A stretch of 64,000 nucleotides of DNA from contig CAVVUF010000004.1 in NCBI GenBank assembly GCA_963751425.1, forward strand, positions 572,981-636,980. Direction: 5' to 3'. The DNA is from an uncultured Chloroflexia bacterium. GTDB taxonomy: Bacteria; Chloroflexota; Anaerolineae; Anaerolineales; UBA4823. A program made the position numbers and the translations under genes. Below, piece after piece: positions 745 through 8,231 of this stretch. The notes beneath the pieces were generated by a model. It ran no database searches, was not told where the DNA came from, and saw nothing but the letters and a program-made list of their open reading frames with translations. The number at the start of each line of letters is the position of its first letter. Position 1 is the stretch's first letter.

Positions 745-1244
745 CTATAGTAAACCTAAATCATGGTTGTCTGTAAAACATCCCTCATAGAATTCATTGA
801 AGGCTTTATCTATACTATGAGAAATAGTTTCATAACCTTCTATAAGAATAATTTGAAATCGGTTAATCAATTCATTTTTCCACAATGAGATTACAACATC
901 CATTTGTGAGTTGTGCTTTTTTTTGTCTCCCCTGAGCACCTTTTTCCAAAGGGCATTTTTATTTTCTGCGAGCGAAGGTTGCTCTTTGAGATAGGCAATG
1001 GCACTAAGAGCATATGCCTTATTTTTTTTAGAATTTGTATAATTGCCTTTTGGCACACCTAAGACGGAAGGCCTTCTTCACACAAACCTAGAAATGCACT
1101 CCTTGGACACCCTTTGTTCTTGCTAGTTGAGTTTTCGCCGAAAATGGAACGAACGGCATTCTCCCATGGCACCTTTGGAGAGGCTACATTCTTGCTTTGA
1201 TATAGTTTCACGGCTTCAAAAGCTGCCAGACCGTATTTGTCCAT
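745..1244 (-). pseudogene. conserved hypothetical protein split by a frameshift (ORFs 1059-1244 and 745-1056)
   Basis: Two adjacent same-strand ORFs are separated by 2 nt in different frames. The N-terminal part ends ...KGCPRSAFLGLCEEGLPS* and the next ORF resumes (V)PKGNYTNSKKNKAYALSAI..., which reads like one protein broken at about 1056-1061. The family is not confidently recognised. Confidence 0.4.
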
Positions 1245-1344: not shown

Positions 1345-2091
1345 CTATCCAAACCCAAACAGCCCTCCCTGCACAATCGGCGTCATATACGCGCACTGCT
1401 CCAGCGTCAGGTACATCCCATCCACCTGGTTTGTATTCATCCGGTATTCTCTTGCATGCTCTTCTGACCAGAAGAAGATTGTATTTCTTCAGTAAGCATC
1501 AATGATTGTGCGCTCGGTGAAGTGCTCCCAATCCATATCTGGCATAAACACCCAGGGCGCGGCATCCGCCTCGCACACAGTGACATGCATGCTGCTGTCG
1601 ACCGTGATGTGCATCACCTGCCCGCAGTGGCTGCATTGGGTGTGCACTTCAACCATGAGATACTCGTTTCTAAGGTTCCCTTCCACGAAGGGCGCCGCAA
1701 TGGCATCCTCCGCTCAGGCACCGTACAAACGCTCTCCTGTGCTGAAATTCAAGCGGTGCGGCGTGGGTTCCACCGTCACCGGGTAAGCCCAAAAAACCGC
1801 CCCTTGTTCATCACGTGCCAGGAAAAACAGCTTCTTTTCCAGCTCATCCAGGATCGCCTCCACGCGTTCAAGGGATATCCCCAGCTTCTCCGAGATGAAA
1901 CCAGGAGATAAAGGCTTTCCAGTATTCATCAGCTCCCTCACCGCAAAATAGCGGATTTGGTGGTGCTGCTCTGTCATAAAGCGCAGCATCTCCTGGCTGT
2001 GTTCGGGGACATGGGTCAAGTCGCTTTTCCACTGCGCCTCTGAGATTTCGAGAATTTGCTTTCCTCTCCCAAGCAAAACTTTTCCATCCAT
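1345..2091 (-). CDS. MerB-like (alkylmercury lyase family) protein with an N-terminal HTH-like region and two in-frame UGA codons (candidate Sec residues)
   Basis: A single frame is open from ATG 2091 to TAG 1345 except for TGA at 1714-1716 and TGA at 1489-1491. RBS AAGGAGG lies 8 nt upstream of the ATG. The translation is ...STGERLYGA-U-AEDAIAAPF...CSHCGQVMHITV...TIIDAY-U-RNTIFFWSEEHAREY...LTLEQCAYMTPIVQGGLF. This parallels MerB RLYAW-C96-ALD99...SSHC...LTV...SF-C159-CHVHFFAS...AEDW...VSVHEAFGLGQEF (MerB sequence recalled from memory). The ORF track shows only the 125-aa and 65-aa pieces. Confidence 0.6.
1459..1476 (-). promoter_or_regulatory. hairpin downstream of the second in-frame UGA (SECIS-like candidate with a GGUC tetraloop)
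   Basis: On the coding strand the sequence is UUCUUCU-GGUC-AGAAGAG, a 7-bp stem including one G-U pair. The GGUC loop sits at +20 to +23 after the UGA at 1489-1491. As I recall it, the E. coli fdhF SECIS has GGUC at +19 to +22. Confidence 0.5.
1678..1692 (-). promoter_or_regulatory. hairpin downstream of the first in-frame UGA (SECIS-like candidate)
   Basis: On the coding strand the sequence is CCCUUC-GUG-GAAGGG, or a 5-bp stem with loop CGUGG. It starts 22 nt after the UGA at 1714-1716. Confidence 0.35.
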
Positions 2092-2325
2092 GAAAAACGC
2101 CTCCTTAATTGATTATCGAAAGGTTACAGAAAAGGAAAAAGGGTGGAATAATCAGGTTTTTCTAGTTTGCTCTGCCTTTTCCGTATTTTCATAGCTTTTC
2201 CGACCTCTATTATCGCACTTTTCCCTTTTTTTCGCCTCTTTTGCGTCATTTCGTGTGCGTCGTGTTCCAGCTTTCTTTCGCTTATTGCGTGTTCCAGGTC
2301 CCCACACCCATCACGCATCAGATGA

Positions 2326-2416: not shown

Positions 2417-3190
2417 ATGCTCGCAGAAATCTTGAACTGCATCCCTTCAAAGGAATCCGAAAAGGATTTGATGTTTGTTAATGCCGTTGGGGCGGGTTTA
2501 TTTGCCGCCGCGCCTCCGGTACCCCCCTCCAAAGATCTACGCGAAGACTGGTGGGAGATCGGTGACCAGGGCAGCACTGGCTCTTGCGTGGGCTGGGCGA
2601 CAGCCGATTCCGTGCTCCGCTGGCACTACGTCAAGACCGGGCGGGTTGCCCAGGACGAGCACATCTCTCCACGCTTTATCTGGATGGCAGCCAAGGAAAC
2701 GGATTTGTCCCGTTCTCAGCCCACCACCTTTATCGAGCTGGAAGGCACCAGCCTGAAGGCCGCCCTGGATATTGCCCGCAAATTCGGCGCGGTGCTCGAT
2801 ACGGTGCTGCCTTTCAAATCCGGGAAGCTCTACCCCGATGAAGCCAAAACCTTCTACGCATTGGCTGCCCAATTGAAACTCTCCAGCTATTTTAACCTCA
2901 GCACCAAGCTTTCTTCCTGGCGCGCCTGGTTAGCCACCAAAGGCCCCATCCTGACCCGCCTGAACGTGGATGCCACCTGGGACAACGCCGATGCCACCCA
3001 GGGCAACCTGGATGTTTACCTGCCCGAAACCATTCGCGGCGGCCATGCCGTTGCCCTGGTAGGGTATACCCCCGACCGCTTCATCGTCCGCAACAGTTGG
3101 GGCACTGGCTGGGGTGACCAAGGCTTTGCCTATGCCTCCCAGGCTTATGCCCAGGCAGCCTTCACCGAGGCGTATGGCGTAACGATCTAA
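2417..3190 (+). CDS. papain-like cysteine peptidase (C1 family)
   Basis: Catalytic motifs are present: DQGSTGSCVGWA (Cys), GGHAVALVGY (His) and NSWGTGWGDQGFAY (Asn/Trp). Start chosen at ATG 2417 (MLAEILNCIPS...). The track ORF opens at 2255. Confidence 0.85.
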   Translation: MLAEILNCIPSKESEKDLMFVNAVGAGLFAAAPPVPPSKDLREDWWEIGDQGSTGSCVGWATADSVLRWHYVKTGRVAQDEHISPRFIWMAAKETDLSRSQPTTFIELEGTSLKAALDIARKFGAVLDTVLPFKSGKLYPDEAKTFYALAAQLKLSSYFNLSTKLSSWRAWLATKGPILTRLNVDATWDNADATQGNLDVYLPETIRGGHAVALVGYTPDRFIVRNSWGTGWGDQGFAYASQAYAQAAFTEAYGVTI

Positions 3191-3338: not shown

Positions 3339-5900
3339 CTACTTTCTCCGCTTTCTTTGTGCCGAGAACATCCTCAACTTCGCGCCCTCAGCCAACAGAA
3401 TGCTTAGCAGACCGGCAGTCCCCACCAGCCCAATTTCCCAAAGGTGCAGGGGGCCAAAGCTGAATAAGCCTCTCAAGAAGGGTATGGAAATTGCTAATCC
3501 CAGGAAAAACAGCGTCCCTAAGGTCACCCACCACAAGGCCGGGTTTGGGATGCGCAGGGTCGACAAAATCGAGCTTTTCCAGGAGCGGTTGGTGAAGATC
3601 AGCCCCAGGTTACCGAGCACCAGCGTGGTGAAGCTCATCATGCGCGCCTCGCTCTCGCCCAGCCCCTTGGATAAGACGACCGCATACACTCCCAGCGTCA
3701 GCGCCAGCACCCCCAACCCCTGGATCAACCCGATCAAAACCATTTGCCTGCCAAATAGAGGCTCACTCAGCTTGCGCGGCGGACGATCCATGATATTCTT
3801 TTCCTCTTCCTCCATCTCAAACACAATCGAGCAGGCCGGGTCGATGATCAATTCCAGGAAGAGGATATGCACCGGCAGCAGCGCCAGCGGCCACTTCAGC
3901 AGCACCGGGATCAGCGACATACCCGCAATCGGGATGTGCACCGAGAAGATAAAAGTCATGGCTTTCTTCAAATTATCGTGGATGCGCCGCCCCACCCGCA
4001 CTGCCTGGACAATGGAAGCAAAGTTATCATCCAGCAGCACCATCGCCGCCGCTTCACGCGCCACATCGGTGCCTCGCCCGCCCATGGCGATCCCGATATG
4101 CGCGGCTTTCAGCGCCGGGGCATCGTTCACGCCATCCCCGGTCATTGCCACCACCTCGCCATTGGCTTTAAGCGCCTGCACCAGGCGCAGCTTTTGTTCG
4201 GGCACAGCCCGCGCAAAGATGCAGGTGGTCTTGATGCGCTCCTTCAGATCTGCGTCGCTCATCGCGTCCAGCTCTGGTCCGGTGATGATCTGATCTGCCG
4301 GTTTTAGCCCAATCTTCTCGGCGATATTGCGCGCCGTTCCAGGATAATCGCCGGTGATCATGATGACCCGAATGCCAGCCGTGTAGCAGTCTTTCACCGC
4401 CTCCGGCACGCCCGGTCGCACCGGGTCAGCCAGTCCGAGCATGCCCAGGAATTCAAAACTGAAATCGTGCTGGGATTCTGGCAGGTCTTCATGCCTGAAT
4501 GTAGCCCGCGCCACGCCGATCACCCGCAGCCCGTGGTTGGCCATCCGGTCGATCTGCTTTTCCATCATCCTACGCTGGCTCTCGTCGAAATGGCAGAGGT
4601 CAGCCACTGCTTCGGGTGCGCCCTTAGCGGCGATAACATACTCCTGCCCATCCGGCGACTGCCAGACCCGTGACATCGCCAGCATTTCAGGCGAAAGCGG
4701 GTACTCACGCAGCAGCTTCCAATCTTTATGAATATGCTCGGTGTTTGAGAGGGTCCTCCCGCCCAATTCTTTCATCGCCTTTTCCATCGGGTCGAAAGGG
4801 TCCGTTGGGCTGGCTAAAATACTGTATTCGACAACTTCATGCAGCGTCTCAGGCAGCGTTGTGGGCGTATGCTCTACATCGAACACCTCCCCGTTTACCG
4901 CTACTTTGGTAACGGTCATCCGGTTGAGCGTCAGCGTGCCGGTTTTATCCACGCATAAGACCGTTGCCGCTCCCAGCATCTCTACTGCCGGGACGCGCCG
5001 CGTCAGCACCTGCCGTTGAGAGATGCGCCAGGCGCCCAACGCCAGGAAGATTGTCAGCACCACTGGAAACTCTTCCGGCAGCGTTGCCATCGCCAGGGTG
5101 ATCCCTGCCAGGAACCCCTCCAGCCAGTTGCCGCGCGTCAAGCCGAAGACAACCACGACGATGATGCACACGCTCACACCCAGGATCGCGAAGTTGCGCA
5201 CAATTTTGCCGGTCTGCCGTTGTAGATCTGTGTCCTCCGGTTCCAGGATTTGCAGCGCCTTGCCGATCTTGCCGATCTCGGTGCGCGGCCCGGTGGCATG
5301 CACCCGGGCAATTCCCTGTCCCTTGACCACCAGGGTACCTGAATAGATGAACGGCAAATCATCACCGCCTGGACGCACCATCCCTTGCTGCCCATCCCAG
5401 GCATTTTTCCGCACCGGGATCGATTCCCCCGTCAGCAGGGACTCGTCGACACTCAGGTTGTTCCCGGTGAGTAATGTCGCATCTGCCGGAACGCGGTCCC
5501 CTTCTGCGATCAGCACAATATCATCCCTCACCACTTCCCGCCCTGCAATCCGTTTTTGAGCGCCATCTCGGATCACCAGTGCGCGTGGGCTGGAAAGATC
5601 GCGCAAAGCTTCTAAGGCGCGCTCTGTCTTCTGCTCCTGGTAGACCGTGATACCGATGATGACAAATACAAACCCCAGCAGCATCAGCGCCTCTTCTGGG
5701 TCGCCCAGCGCCAGGTATAGACCGCCGCATATGATCAGCAGCATGAACATTGGCTCGCGGATAATTTCCCACAAGAGATGGAAAAAGGAGCGCTTCTTCG
5801 AAGAAGGCAGCTCATTAAAGCCATCTTGCGCCAGGCGTTCGAAAGCTTCTGGCTCAGTCAAACCTTGAAGATTGGTTTCATCAAAATCTGCGGTCATCAT
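3339..5900 (-). CDS. cation-transporting P-type ATPase, P2 (Ca2+/PacL-like) type
   Basis: 853 aa. Motifs TGES, DKTGTLT, TGDGVNDAPALK and the TM4 PEEFP (PEGL-like) motif are present. There is no CPC motif or N-terminal heavy-metal domain. Confidence 0.95.
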   Translation of the reverse strand: MMTADFDETNLQGLTEPEAFERLAQDGFNELPSSKKRSFFHLLWEIIREPMFMLLIICGGLYLALGDPEEALMLLGFVFVIIGITVYQEQKTERALEALRDLSSPRALVIRDGAQKRIAGREVVRDDIVLIAEGDRVPADATLLTGNNLSVDESLLTGESIPVRKNAWDGQQGMVRPGGDDLPFIYSGTLVVKGQGIARVHATGPRTEIGKIGKALQILEPEDTDLQRQTGKIVRNFAILGVSVCIIVVVVFGLTRGNWLEGFLAGITLAMATLPEEFPVVLTIFLALGAWRISQRQVLTRRVPAVEMLGAATVLCVDKTGTLTLNRMTVTKVAVNGEVFDVEHTPTTLPETLHEVVEYSILASPTDPFDPMEKAMKELGGRTLSNTEHIHKDWKLLREYPLSPEMLAMSRVWQSPDGQEYVIAAKGAPEAVADLCHFDESQRRMMEKQIDRMANHGLRVIGVARATFRHEDLPESQHDFSFEFLGMLGLADPVRPGVPEAVKDCYTAGIRVIMITGDYPGTARNIAEKIGLKPADQIITGPELDAMSDADLKERIKTTCIFARAVPEQKLRLVQALKANGEVVAMTGDGVNDAPALKAAHIGIAMGGRGTDVAREAAAMVLLDDNFASIVQAVRVGRRIHDNLKKAMTFIFSVHIPIAGMSLIPVLLKWPLALLPVHILFLELIIDPACSIVFEMEEEEKNIMDRPPRKLSEPLFGRQMVLIGLIQGLGVLALTLGVYAVVLSKGLGESEARMMSFTTLVLGNLGLIFTNRSWKSSILSTLRIPNPALWWVTLGTLFFLGLAISIPFLRGLFSFGPLHLWEIGLVGTAGLLSILLAEGAKLRMFSAQRKRRK

Positions 5901-6701: not shown

Positions 6702-8231
6702 ATGAACGTTATCATCATTGGCTCTGGTCTGGCTGGATTGACCGCTGGTGCTGCGCTTGCCAAAGCCGGGCACCAGGTTAACATCTTCGAACAATATTCT
6801 CAGACTGGCGGTGTCACCGCTCCCTATGAAAAAGAAGGCTTCCGCTGGGATTTAGGCCAGCTGCTCATTGAAGGCCTGGGACCAGATGAACCTCTCGGGG
6901 GTATCCTGGCAGAGCTGGGTGTGTTGGGCAAAATCCAGGTCAAGGTCGATGAGCGCCGCTATGTCTTTCCAGATTTCGAGATCAACAAGCCCAAGGATTA
7001 TGCCGGTTTACGCTGGCGCATCGACTACCTGAAGGCGCAGTTCCCCGAAGACGCGGCTGGTTTGGAGCGCTACTGGAAAGACTATCTGCGCTTCACAGGC
7101 CTCATGACCATCGGCCGCCGCCTGGAGCAGACTGCGGGCCTATCGGCATATTTTTTGAAAGCGCGCCTGTTCCTCAAGTTATTGCCTCTCCTCTCCAAGA
7201 AGGATTGGAGCGCAAAGCAGCTCATGGATGATTATTTTAAGTCTGAAAAGCTCAAATGCGTCTTCACTTCCATCCTGGCCGATTTTTTCACCCCTCCCAG
7301 CCAGTTCATTGGGTTGGGCGTTTTCGCCCTAAATCCCGAAGTCTCCTTTGATAAACGCATGCCCCGTCAATTGGCAAAGGATACCGAGCAGCTTTATTAT
7401 TACAGCATCCTGGGAGGTATCCATACCCTCGTCAAAGCCCTGGTTGAAACCATCCAGGCTCAAGGCGGTCAGATCTATACCAGTCGCCCGGTTGCCCAGA
7501 TTATCCTCCAGAATGGCCGCGCCGCAGAAGTCGTAGACCGGGATGGGAAACGGACCCCCGCCGATGTTGTCATCGCTTCAGGGGGAGCAAAGGAAACCTT
7601 CTTTGACCTGGTGGGTGAGGAAAACCTGCCAGCAGAATTTGCTGCCCAGCTCCAGACCATTCCCTTGATGGACTCGGTTTTCATGGTGCATCTCGGATTG
7701 GATTTCGATCCTGCTCCCTACGTCCGAGGTGTGTGTACTTATTATTACGGTACTTATGACATTGAAGGAGGCATTGTTGAGAACCGCCAGGGTCTCTATC
7801 ACGAAGGTCGCTCTGGCTTTGTCGTCCATGTCCCCACCAACCATTCTCCCTCCATGGCCCCCACCGGCCGGCATGCGATGACCATTTACACCATCTGTCC
7901 CGATCAGCTCCAACAAGGCACCTGGGCGGAACGGAAAGAAGAGTATGCGGACAAGCTGATCCAATATGCTGAAGCGCATATCCCCGGTCTGAGCCAGCAC
8001 ATCCGGGTCGCAGAGATCCTCACCCCCGAGGATTTCCGCCTGCGCACCCACACCAAACACCACGCCTTCGGAGGCATTGCCCCCGTGATGGGCTCCTGGC
8101 GTGTACCCCACCAGACCCCCATCCAAGGATTGTGGTTTGTAGGGGCTCAAAGTGAAAGTGGCGGCGGGGTAAATAATGTCATTCCCGGCGCCTACAAAAC
8201 CGCGCAGGCCATCCTCAAAGCTAACGCCTGA
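6702..8231 (+). CDS. phytoene desaturase (CrtI)-family NAD(P)/FAD-dependent oxidoreductase
   Basis: 509 aa. The N-terminal dinucleotide-binding fold is VIIIGSGLAGLTAGAALAKAGHQVNIFEQ. Overall length and pattern are CrtI-like. Confidence 0.8.
   Translation: MNVIIIGSGLAGLTAGAALAKAGHQVNIFEQYSQTGGVTAPYEKEGFRWDLGQLLIEGLGPDEPLGGILAELGVLGKIQVKVDERRYVFPDFEINKPKDYAGLRWRIDYLKAQFPEDAAGLERYWKDYLRFTGLMTIGRRLEQTAGLSAYFLKARLFLKLLPLLSKKDWSAKQLMDDYFKSEKLKCVFTSILADFFTPPSQFIGLGVFALNPEVSFDKRMPRQLAKDTEQLYYYSILGGIHTLVKALVETIQAQGGQIYTSRPVAQIILQNGRAAEVVDRDGKRTPADVVIASGGAKETFFDLVGEENLPAEFAAQLQTIPLMDSVFMVHLGLDFDPAPYVRGVCTYYYGTYDIEGGIVENRQGLYHEGRSGFVVHVPTNHSPSMAPTGRHAMTIYTICPDQLQQGTWAERKEEYADKLIQYAEAHIPGLSQHIRVAEILTPEDFRLRTHTKHHAFGGIAPVMGSWRVPHQTPIQGLWFVGAQSESGGGVNNVIPGAYKTAQAILKANA

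Follow-up and report, generated by a model that had tools for sequence, protein, structure and literature searches.

Two candidate SECIS hairpins behind the in-frame UGA codons of a MerB-like gene from an uncultured Chloroflexota bacterium

We analyzed a stretch of 64,000 nucleotides (the window) from the genome of an uncultured Chloroflexia bacterium (assembly GCA_963751425.1, contig CAVVUF010000004.1, positions 572,981 to 636,980). Its minus strand encodes a protein with the fold of the organomercurial lyase MerB, and the gene contains two in-frame UGA codons, each followed by a short hairpin. We conclude, with a probability of about 0.88, that the two hairpins are bacterial selenocysteine insertion sequence (SECIS) elements, one for each UGA, in which case both codons would specify selenocysteine (Sec). 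They would be ordinary bacterial SECIS elements in kind, within an apparently undescribed family of MerB-like proteins with two Sec residues. An earlier note on this DNA, made from its letters, had proposed the two elements, and the proposal is now supported by conservation of the hairpins among orthologues, by frozen synonymous sites and by a compensatory change. From the window alone the hairpins are not beyond chance; across the orthologues they are far beyond it. The features concerned are as follows.

1345 to 2091, minus strand: predicted gene for a MerB-like selenoprotein, 248 sense codons including the two in-frame UGA codons, with ATG at 2091-2089 and TAG at 1347-1345
2100 to 2106, minus strand: Shine-Dalgarno sequence AAGGAGG, read from the sequence, 8 nt 5' of the ATG
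1714 to 1716, minus strand: UGA-1 (site 1), codon 126, putative Sec, equivalent to Cys96 of MerB
1678 to 1692, minus strand: hairpin 1, putative SECIS, CCCUUC-GUG-GAAGGG, with the stem beginning 21 nt after UGA-1
1685 to 1713, minus strand: competing helix of GCGGAGG, just 3' of UGA-1, with CCUUCGU from the 5' arm of hairpin 1; an inner GCC/GGC stem is part of the structure
1489 to 1491, minus strand: UGA-2 (site 2), codon 201, putative Sec, equivalent to Cys159 of MerB and at the same position as the Sec of the selenoprotein SaoL
1459 to 1476, minus strand: hairpin 2, putative SECIS, UUCUUCU-GGUC-AGAAGAG, a 7-bp stem with a GGUC tetraloop, 12 nt after UGA-2

The MerB-like gene and its two UGA codons

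Read on the minus strand, the frame is unbroken across both TGAs from the ATG at 2091 to the TAG at 1347-1345. A single open reading frame (ORF) thus spans both UGAs, and both hairpins lie inside coding sequence, as the earlier note had described. The hairpins themselves were found where that note had placed them, with the sequence, loop and spacing that it gave.

A scan of genomes gave 362 relatives; we kept 80 loci, and 81 sequences made up the genome set used for alignments. Scanning of metagenomes and contig look-ups provided 57 further loci, and the comparative set comprises 129 non-redundant sequences. The 80 kept loci are mostly from Chloroflexota (Anaerolineae), and also from Acidobacteriota, Myxococcota, Thermodesulfobacteriota, Clostridia and Zixibacteria metagenome-assembled genomes (MAGs). 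TGA is present at both sites in 79 of the 80 loci, the exception being L040, which has TGT at site 1; in the genome set it occurs at site 1 in 80/81 sequences and at site 2 in 81/81. The codons at site 1 in the non-redundant set are TGA in 112 of 128 sequences, TGC or TGT in 15 and TCC in one, and those at site 2 are TGA in 123 of 124 and TGC in one. TGA is kept at both sites across phyla, down to about 48% protein identity. The UGA sites align with Cys in MerB and in variants of the family. Entropy by codon position (approximately 0.9, 0.7 and 1.6 bit for the first, second and third positions) is alike before, between and after the UGAs, and coding constraint is not reduced after either of them.

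The read-through product is a member of the Pfam MerB family (PF03243; E 1.8e-15, 57.5 bits, gathering cutoff 27). An AlphaFold model of an orthologue that is 85% identical (P0001) has a predicted local distance difference test (pLDDT) score of 90.7 and a predicted template modelling score (pTM) of 0.87. All 11 significant matches of this model to PDB structures, identified using Foldseek, are MerB or MerB2, with target-normalised template modelling scores of 0.71-0.81 for crystal structures and 0.59 for a nuclear magnetic resonance model. The E values are about 1e-10 to 1e-11 for ten MerB/MerB2 crystal-structure chains.

As reference we used MerB of Escherichia coli R831b, a sequence confirmed to be 100% identical to annotated merB genes; it has Cys at 96, 117, 159 and 160 and Asp at 99. 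Pairwise alignment with this protein (identity about 23%), made with Cys substituted at the UGA sites, places U126 on Cys96, D129 on Asp99 and U201 on Cys159. A PDB profile search with a W-containing alignment was rejected, as the W placeholders shifted the alignment, and the Cys-substituted pairwise alignments were used instead. All three positions of the catalytic triad are occupied and conserved in the alignment (UGA at 126, Asp129, UGA at 201). By these alignments, the gene product is a MerB-fold enzyme with a putative Sec-Asp-Sec triad (Sec126-Asp129-Sec201).

Conservation of the hairpins and likeness to known SECIS elements

The RNA 3' of UGA-2 reads AGAAAUACAAUC-UUCUUCU-GGUC-AGAAGAG, in which the 7-bp stem includes one terminal G-U pair and GGUC falls at +20 to +23. 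This stem is paired in 100% of cells across all 81 sequences of the genome set, its sole variation being a change of U-A to U-G wobble. In the non-redundant set, 117 of 123 sequences form 7/7 pairs and 120 of 123 keep the GGUC loop (the exceptions are GUUC, twice, and GGAC, once). The distance from UGA-2 to the stem is fixed at 12 nt, with no indels in the site-2 alignment. Amino-acid changes inside hairpin 2 that leave the structure intact were identified in L096, L100-L111, L124 and L130. A Glu to Gly change (GAA to GGA) stays paired via U-G wobble, and the altered loops stem from Trp to Cys (GUUC) and Ser to Thr (GGAC).

Hairpin 1 lies at +22 to +36 after UGA-1; its loop is GUG if the stem is taken as 6 bp and CGUGG if it is taken as 5 bp. 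In the family, the consensus reads (G)CCCUU-CGUGC-AAGGG(C), with a core that is paired in about 98% of cells. The stem is intact in 110 of the 112 sequences that have TGA at site 1, and the conservation in UGA-containing orthologues that the earlier note had made a test of its proposal thus holds at both sites. Both hairpins are recovered in RNAalifold consensus structures without prior information. The distance from UGA-1 to the stem is fixed at 21 nt, with no indels in the site-1 alignment. The outer pair of hairpin 1 is CCC..GGG in the majority of sequences and UCC..GGA in nine; the intermediates UCC..GGG and CCC..GGA also occur. Here, as CCC becomes UCC and Pro is replaced by Ser, a synonymous change of Gly (GGG to GGA) restores pairing.

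In the 81-sequence codon alignment, third-position entropy has a gene-wide mean of about 1.6 bit, and it falls to 0.0-0.5 bit at the two hairpins alone (codons 133-138 of hairpin 1, 0.10-0.49 bit; codons 206-211 of hairpin 2, 0.00-0.50 bit). At the invariant Gly, Pro and Thr residues G119, T110, P184 and G225, the third position has 1.7-2.0 bit. Because synonymous sites are frozen only at codons 133-138 and 206-211, we infer that purifying selection at the RNA level is confined to the two hairpins. Genomes of very different GC content use identical codons at these positions. Also frozen are unpaired synonymous positions in the loop of hairpin 1 (UUC codon 135 and GUG codon 136), which is compatible with a sequence-specific reader such as SelB. 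A double constraint on the RNA and on the encoded peptides (PFV[Q/E]G and FFWSEE) would explain stems that are near-invariant rather than freely covarying.

Hairpin 1 of the window has an energy of -7.9 kcal/mol alone and -16.0 kcal/mol in the constrained fold. In free RNA its pair probability is 0.008, and the minimum free energy (MFE) fold at site 1 is the competing helix (-17.3 kcal/mol). Holding 15 nt single-stranded, namely the UGA and the 12 nt that follow it, raises the pair probability of hairpin 1 to 0.999. By folding, which the earlier note had put forward as a check, hairpin 1 is masked in free window RNA and is predicted to form only when the first approximately 12 nt after the UGA are open. 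In this folding model, the competing helix could make formation of the hairpin-1 SECIS ribosome-dependent. A competing GCGGAGG helix that hides hairpin 1 was also found in L001. Although it pairs in 78% of cells, no measure beats column shuffles across orthologues, and it was rejected as a conserved element. Also rejected was a 3-bp mini-hairpin between UGA-1 and hairpin 1 (GAC GCG AUC GCG), for which CG to UA covariation is confounded by GC content at third codon positions (GC3); third positions in this region are without constraint.

Published criteria for bacterial SECIS (bSECIS) elements are a loop of 3-9 nt, a stem of 4-16 bp, a UGA-to-loop distance of 16-37 nt and an MFE of at most -7.5 kcal/mol (PMC13188914). 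The bSECISearch consensus model also places a G at loop position 1 or 2, with G or U as the usual next nucleotide (PMC13188914 Fig. 2). Hairpin 1 falls within all of these limits (GUG or 5-nt loop, 5-6 bp, 26-27 nt spacing, -7.9 kcal/mol), and hairpin 2 within those for loop, stem and spacing (GGUC, 7 bp, 19 nt). The loop G is present in both, as GGUC is kept in the 120 of 123 sequences mentioned above and GUG or CGUGC in about 110 of 112 UGA-containing sequences. Hairpin 2 also agrees with the general rule of a stem of 6-8 bp and a conserved G in the loop, some 20 nt from the UGA (PMC4605307).

The SECIS element of E. coli fdhF resembles hairpin 2 in its GGUC tetraloop and in its place within the coding sequence, directly 3' of the UGA. 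The 31-mer that the earlier note had given for it proved exact (5412 of 5426 E. coli genomes have a 100% match within fdhF), with GGUC at +19 to +22; the tetraloop of hairpin 2 is therefore one nt further from its UGA. Both apical hairpins are short and similar in energy (-4.2 kcal/mol for fdhF, -5.4 kcal/mol for hairpin 2). The stem of the fdhF SECIS has a bulged U. This bulge is absent here: the A-U-rich 7-bp helix of hairpin 2 is uninterrupted in every sequence, and hairpin 1 is also without a bulge. Unlike fdhF, hairpin 2 does not have a conserved lower helix that extends back to the UGA. Hairpin 1, with the loop (C)GUG(C/G), differs from fdhF in loop sequence and in a distance from its UGA that is 7-8 nt longer. 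At site 2, a longer lower stem (A2 columns 10-19 with 47-56) was considered and rejected, as only 60% of cells pair and the stem is absent in the window; AAU/GAA to AAC/GAG covariation in this lower stem is confounded by genomic GC3.

Evidence against the SECIS assignment and alternative explanations

A number of observations weigh against two SECIS elements. The MFE z-scores relative to dinucleotide shuffles range from +0.29 to -1.72, so that neither hairpin stands out, and the superiority over shuffled controls that the earlier note had looked for did not materialize. Neither hairpin appears in the unconstrained MFE folds of free window RNA. Hairpin 2, which at site 2 competes with a GAAGAA/UUCUUC helix that takes in the UGA, has a low pair probability in the window (0.06-0.17; family median 0.84-0.89). 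Hairpin 2 of the window, at -5.4 kcal/mol alone and -6.2 kcal/mol constrained, also misses the bSECIS threshold of -7.5 kcal/mol, which 84% of the 81 genome-set sequences pass. Moreover, bSECIS-like hairpins of at least 5 bp occur downstream of 18.8% of the 2162 TGA triplets in the window, and 7.7% of these triplets have one at -5.4 kcal/mol or lower. The minimal hairpin of E. coli fdhF, with its sequence verified, folds at only -4.2 kcal/mol, and thus the test of free energy against shuffles is not discriminating. A search of Rfam at gathering and permissive thresholds gave nothing relevant, only a chance match to a snoRNA (E 3.4), and may carry little weight. Since the stems barely vary, a single pair, in hairpin 1, is all that supports them by classical covariation.

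A search for the decoding machinery found none of selA, selB, selC and selD in the 64-kb window or in the flanks of loci L001-L060. The window has neither a tRNA(Sec) nor a motif like SelB or SelD, and the flanks have no tRNA(Sec), but spans this short are uninformative. For Chloroflexi and Acidobacteria, both tRNA(Sec) and the ability to decode Sec are on record, at the level of the phylum only (PMC1794560, PMC5389517).

The earlier note had also looked to Cys-containing versions for loss of the hairpins, and this is seen in some lineages and not in others. In the non-redundant set, the stem of hairpin 1 is intact in 110/112 TGA forms versus 6/15 Cys forms (Fisher p 1.4e-8, which overstates independence, as the nine broken Cys sequences are one clade). 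This clade, which we term 'CGEDS' for the peptide at site 1, where it has TGC (L086/87, L089, L091-097 and L128; at least nine distinct sequences), has lost hairpin 1. Its P-F-V-Q codons drift (CCT/CCG/TCC, GTC/GTT/GTG, CAA/CAG) and the closing Gly is replaced by Ala or Ser. At site 2 the clade still has TGA, followed by an intact hairpin 2, and its Sec-type sisters (L098-L111) retain hairpin 1. The 'CGEDS' clade thus shows hairpin 1 to be dispensable for the presumed decoding of site 2. The only two forms with Cys at site 2 have relaxed codons at hairpin 2 (GAA GCA in L081, TCG GAG GAT in L137).

However, hairpin 1 is kept in five of six independent lineages with Cys at site 1 (L040, L082/83, L084, L085, and L088 with L090). 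The nearest sampled Sec relatives of these hairpin-keeping lineages are 57-78% identical, and four-fold sites are saturated. L088 and L090, which are of Deltaproteobacteria type, are 77% identical, differ at 37% of four-fold sites and have TGC and TGT, respectively, at site 1. They nevertheless share an identical extended hairpin 1, ACUCCCUUCGUGCAAGGGAGA, in a 21-nt region (L088 about 1204-1250). This is unexpected if the hairpin serves UGA-1 alone (chance approximately 0.07, a rough estimate). The kept hairpins may reflect recent conversions on unsampled branches, or a residual role of hairpin 1.

DNA alone does not tell Sec from Cys. The hairpins could recode UGA as Cys, via a tRNA(Sec)-like tRNA(Cys) (selC*) and a dedicated SelB-like factor. 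The selC* tRNAs, possible opal suppressors, are known from anaerobic Firmicutes, Thermodesulfobacteria, Nitrospirae and Deltaproteobacteria, but are not reported in Chloroflexi or Acidobacteria (PMC5389517), the home of most family members. Several lineages have swapped UGA-1 for an ordinary Cys codon, yet UGA is kept in more than 110 sequences, and thus the residue encoded by UGA is probably not equivalent to Cys. In addition, the homologous position of SaoL is treated as Sec. We consider insertion of Cys very unlikely.

We see hardly any likelihood that the hairpins are by-products of codon bias and of the peptide motifs PFVQG and FFWSEE, with no function as RNA. Peptide conservation cannot freeze third positions (0.0-0.3 bit in the hairpins versus 1.7-2.0 bit at invariant Gly, Pro and Thr), although it is real: both peptides are conserved, also in Cys-type homologues, and F-F-x-S after Cys159 is present in canonical MerB and MerB2. 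The five Cys-at-site-1 lineages that keep hairpin 1 and the unremarkable folding energies also fit an origin as by-products. On the other hand, the 'CGEDS' clade writes the same P-F-V-Q in many codons, the Pro to Ser change is paired with a synonymous Gly change that restores pairing, and the same hairpin codons are used across genomes of very different GC content.

No more credible is a role independent of SelB, in which the hairpins would stimulate pausing and near-cognate read-through or act as selenium-independent attenuators, giving products of 125, 200 and 248 residues. Downstream structures can stimulate read-through of stop codons in other systems, and truncated products are what annotation pipelines predict for this gene. 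However, loops with G and U, fixed spacing and the same loop across phyla point to a specific binding partner, and a weak, A-U-rich 7-bp stem (-5.4 kcal/mol) would be a poor roadblock. The UGAs are exactly at the two catalytic Cys positions, and a 125-residue fragment would be without the catalytic core.

Finally, gene calls by the Joint Genome Institute (JGI) write W at both sites and most other calls end at residue 125, but the notion that the UGAs are true stops (of a pseudogene or split gene) or Trp or Gly codons (genetic code 4 or 25), with incidental hairpins, is effectively excluded by three observations together: TGA ends 15 of 34 long ORFs in the window, where it is the commonest genuine stop and the genetic code is therefore not UGA-sense; the even codon-position entropy indicates identical purifying selection in all three segments; and TGA is conserved at exactly two codons, aligned with Cys rather than Trp or Gly, in more than 110 sequences from several phyla.

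If the hairpins are SECIS elements, the established bacterial Sec pathway suggests how they would act. SelB-GTP-Sec-tRNA(Sec) would bind the apical stem-loop through the loop G and U, and the bound complex would be located at the mRNA entrance of the ribosome with the UGA in the A site. Sec would then be inserted in competition with release factor 2. From the predicted folds, a ribosome nearing UGA-1 may melt the competing helix and so free hairpin 1. The product would be a 248-residue enzyme in which Sec126-Asp129-Sec201 replaces Cys96-Asp99-Cys159 of MerB.

A MerB-like family distinct from SaoL, and its significance

SaoL is a MerB-like organometallic lyase selenoprotein with one Sec, in a CU motif (reviews PMC9312934, PMC13188914). 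It was described in the Haft & Gwadz 2022 preprint and has the NCBIfam model NF040728. The window family resembles it in the MerB fold, in Sec (here putative) at the Cys159 equivalent, in the equivalent of Asp99 and in database entries that are typically truncated at the UGA. SaoL has the CU dipeptide, a single Sec and a Cys kept at the Cys96 position, whereas the window family has Y-U or F-U and a second predicted Sec at the Cys96 position; the window protein itself reads Y-U at UGA-2 and many orthologues F-U. SaoL is encoded in the nine-gene SAO locus of strict anaerobes, whereas the window family lacks conserved neighbours and is found chiefly in MAGs of Chloroflexota and Acidobacteriota. 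With the SaoL model, for which the cutoff is 140, the score of the window protein is 50.3 bits. By its sequence, the protein is not SaoL.

With MerB and MerB2 (PDB 3F0O, 5C17) the family shares the fold, the triad positions and an F-F-x-S motif after the second catalytic residue. It differs in the putative replacement of both catalytic Cys by Sec, in an N-terminal extension of about 40 residues and in the lack of mer operon context. The window protein is also below the cutoffs of the NCBIfam MerB equivalog models NF009710 (58.5 versus 193) and NF033555 (49.5 versus 200), and no NCBIfam model reaches its cutoff for the window family. SaoL was the only MerB-like selenoprotein that we found in the literature, and the one-Sec SaoL is the sole entry for the MerB fold in a 2026 selenoprotein inventory; recent large MAG surveys may list the window family among unvalidated candidates. 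Other variants of the protein were identified. P0036 has a GNAT acetyltransferase domain fused to a MerB-like domain, and in P0009 and P0101 the residues at sites 1 and 2 are Ser and Cys, respectively. More distant full-length homologues (P0100, P0102, P0103, P0108, P0161 and P0166) have non-Cys residues at both catalytic positions (E/L, G/G, S/R).

There is no conserved gene neighbourhood, as no neighbour is common to more than 8 of 81 loci. Thus, the nine-gene SAO locus is absent around the gene, and no mer genes lie near it. On the 5' side the window encodes a papain-family C1 peptidase (2417-3190, plus strand), a P-type cation-transporting ATPase (3339-5900, minus strand) and, further away, a flavin adenine dinucleotide (FAD) amine oxidoreductase (6702-8231, plus strand), none of which is conserved beside the gene in other loci. 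On the 3' side is a DUF6979 (PF22399) gene (745-1244, minus strand) that is split into two ORFs in different frames, of which 1059-1244 covers profile positions 1-59 and 745-1056 covers positions 64-127. The break near 1056-1061, after a TAG, could mark a pseudogene with a frameshift, an error in sequencing or programmed frameshifting. Genes of the 'CGEDS' clade adjoin a divergent MarR-family regulator (L086 5472-5885, L087 995-1408, L089 65-517), whereas the Sec/Sec genes have no conserved neighbour.

Public protein calls for the family (P0001-P0243) mostly end at residue 125, at UGA-1, and some end at 200. Full-length calls by JGI have W at both Sec sites, being translated under code 4. Most cluster representatives in a library of 1.8 billion proteins also end at 125 or carry W at the Sec sites. 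Despite 362 matching genome loci, the family is thus largely hidden by mis-annotation. We tentatively suggest, as a possibility rather than an expectation, an undescribed and widespread stand-alone MerB-fold family with a diselenol Sec-Asp-Sec site that is common in Chloroflexota (Anaerolineae) and Acidobacteriota of soil, sediment and groundwater, its members being systematically mistaken for 125-residue fragments in annotation.

For the study of how SECIS elements evolve, the family is a natural experiment of unusual clarity. Its RNA and protein appear to be under dual constraint, with a compensatory combination of Pro to Ser and synonymous Gly changes, and one putative SECIS decays after replacement of Sec by Cys while the other persists in the same mRNA. 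There is also a lesson in method, in that single-sequence folding statistics would have dismissed an element that was found by synonymous-site conservation. If the assignment is true, two sequence-invariant SECIS elements would constitute a natural cassette for placing two Sec in one protein. Sec in place of both metal-binding Cys of an organomercurial-lyase fold suggests a much higher affinity for soft metals, and the enzyme would be a candidate to break metal-carbon bonds, in methylmercury or elsewhere, independently of mer operons. The gene would thus be a concrete candidate for organometal (possibly methylmercury) metabolism among uncultured bacteria that are abundant in soil and sediment and have no mer operons.

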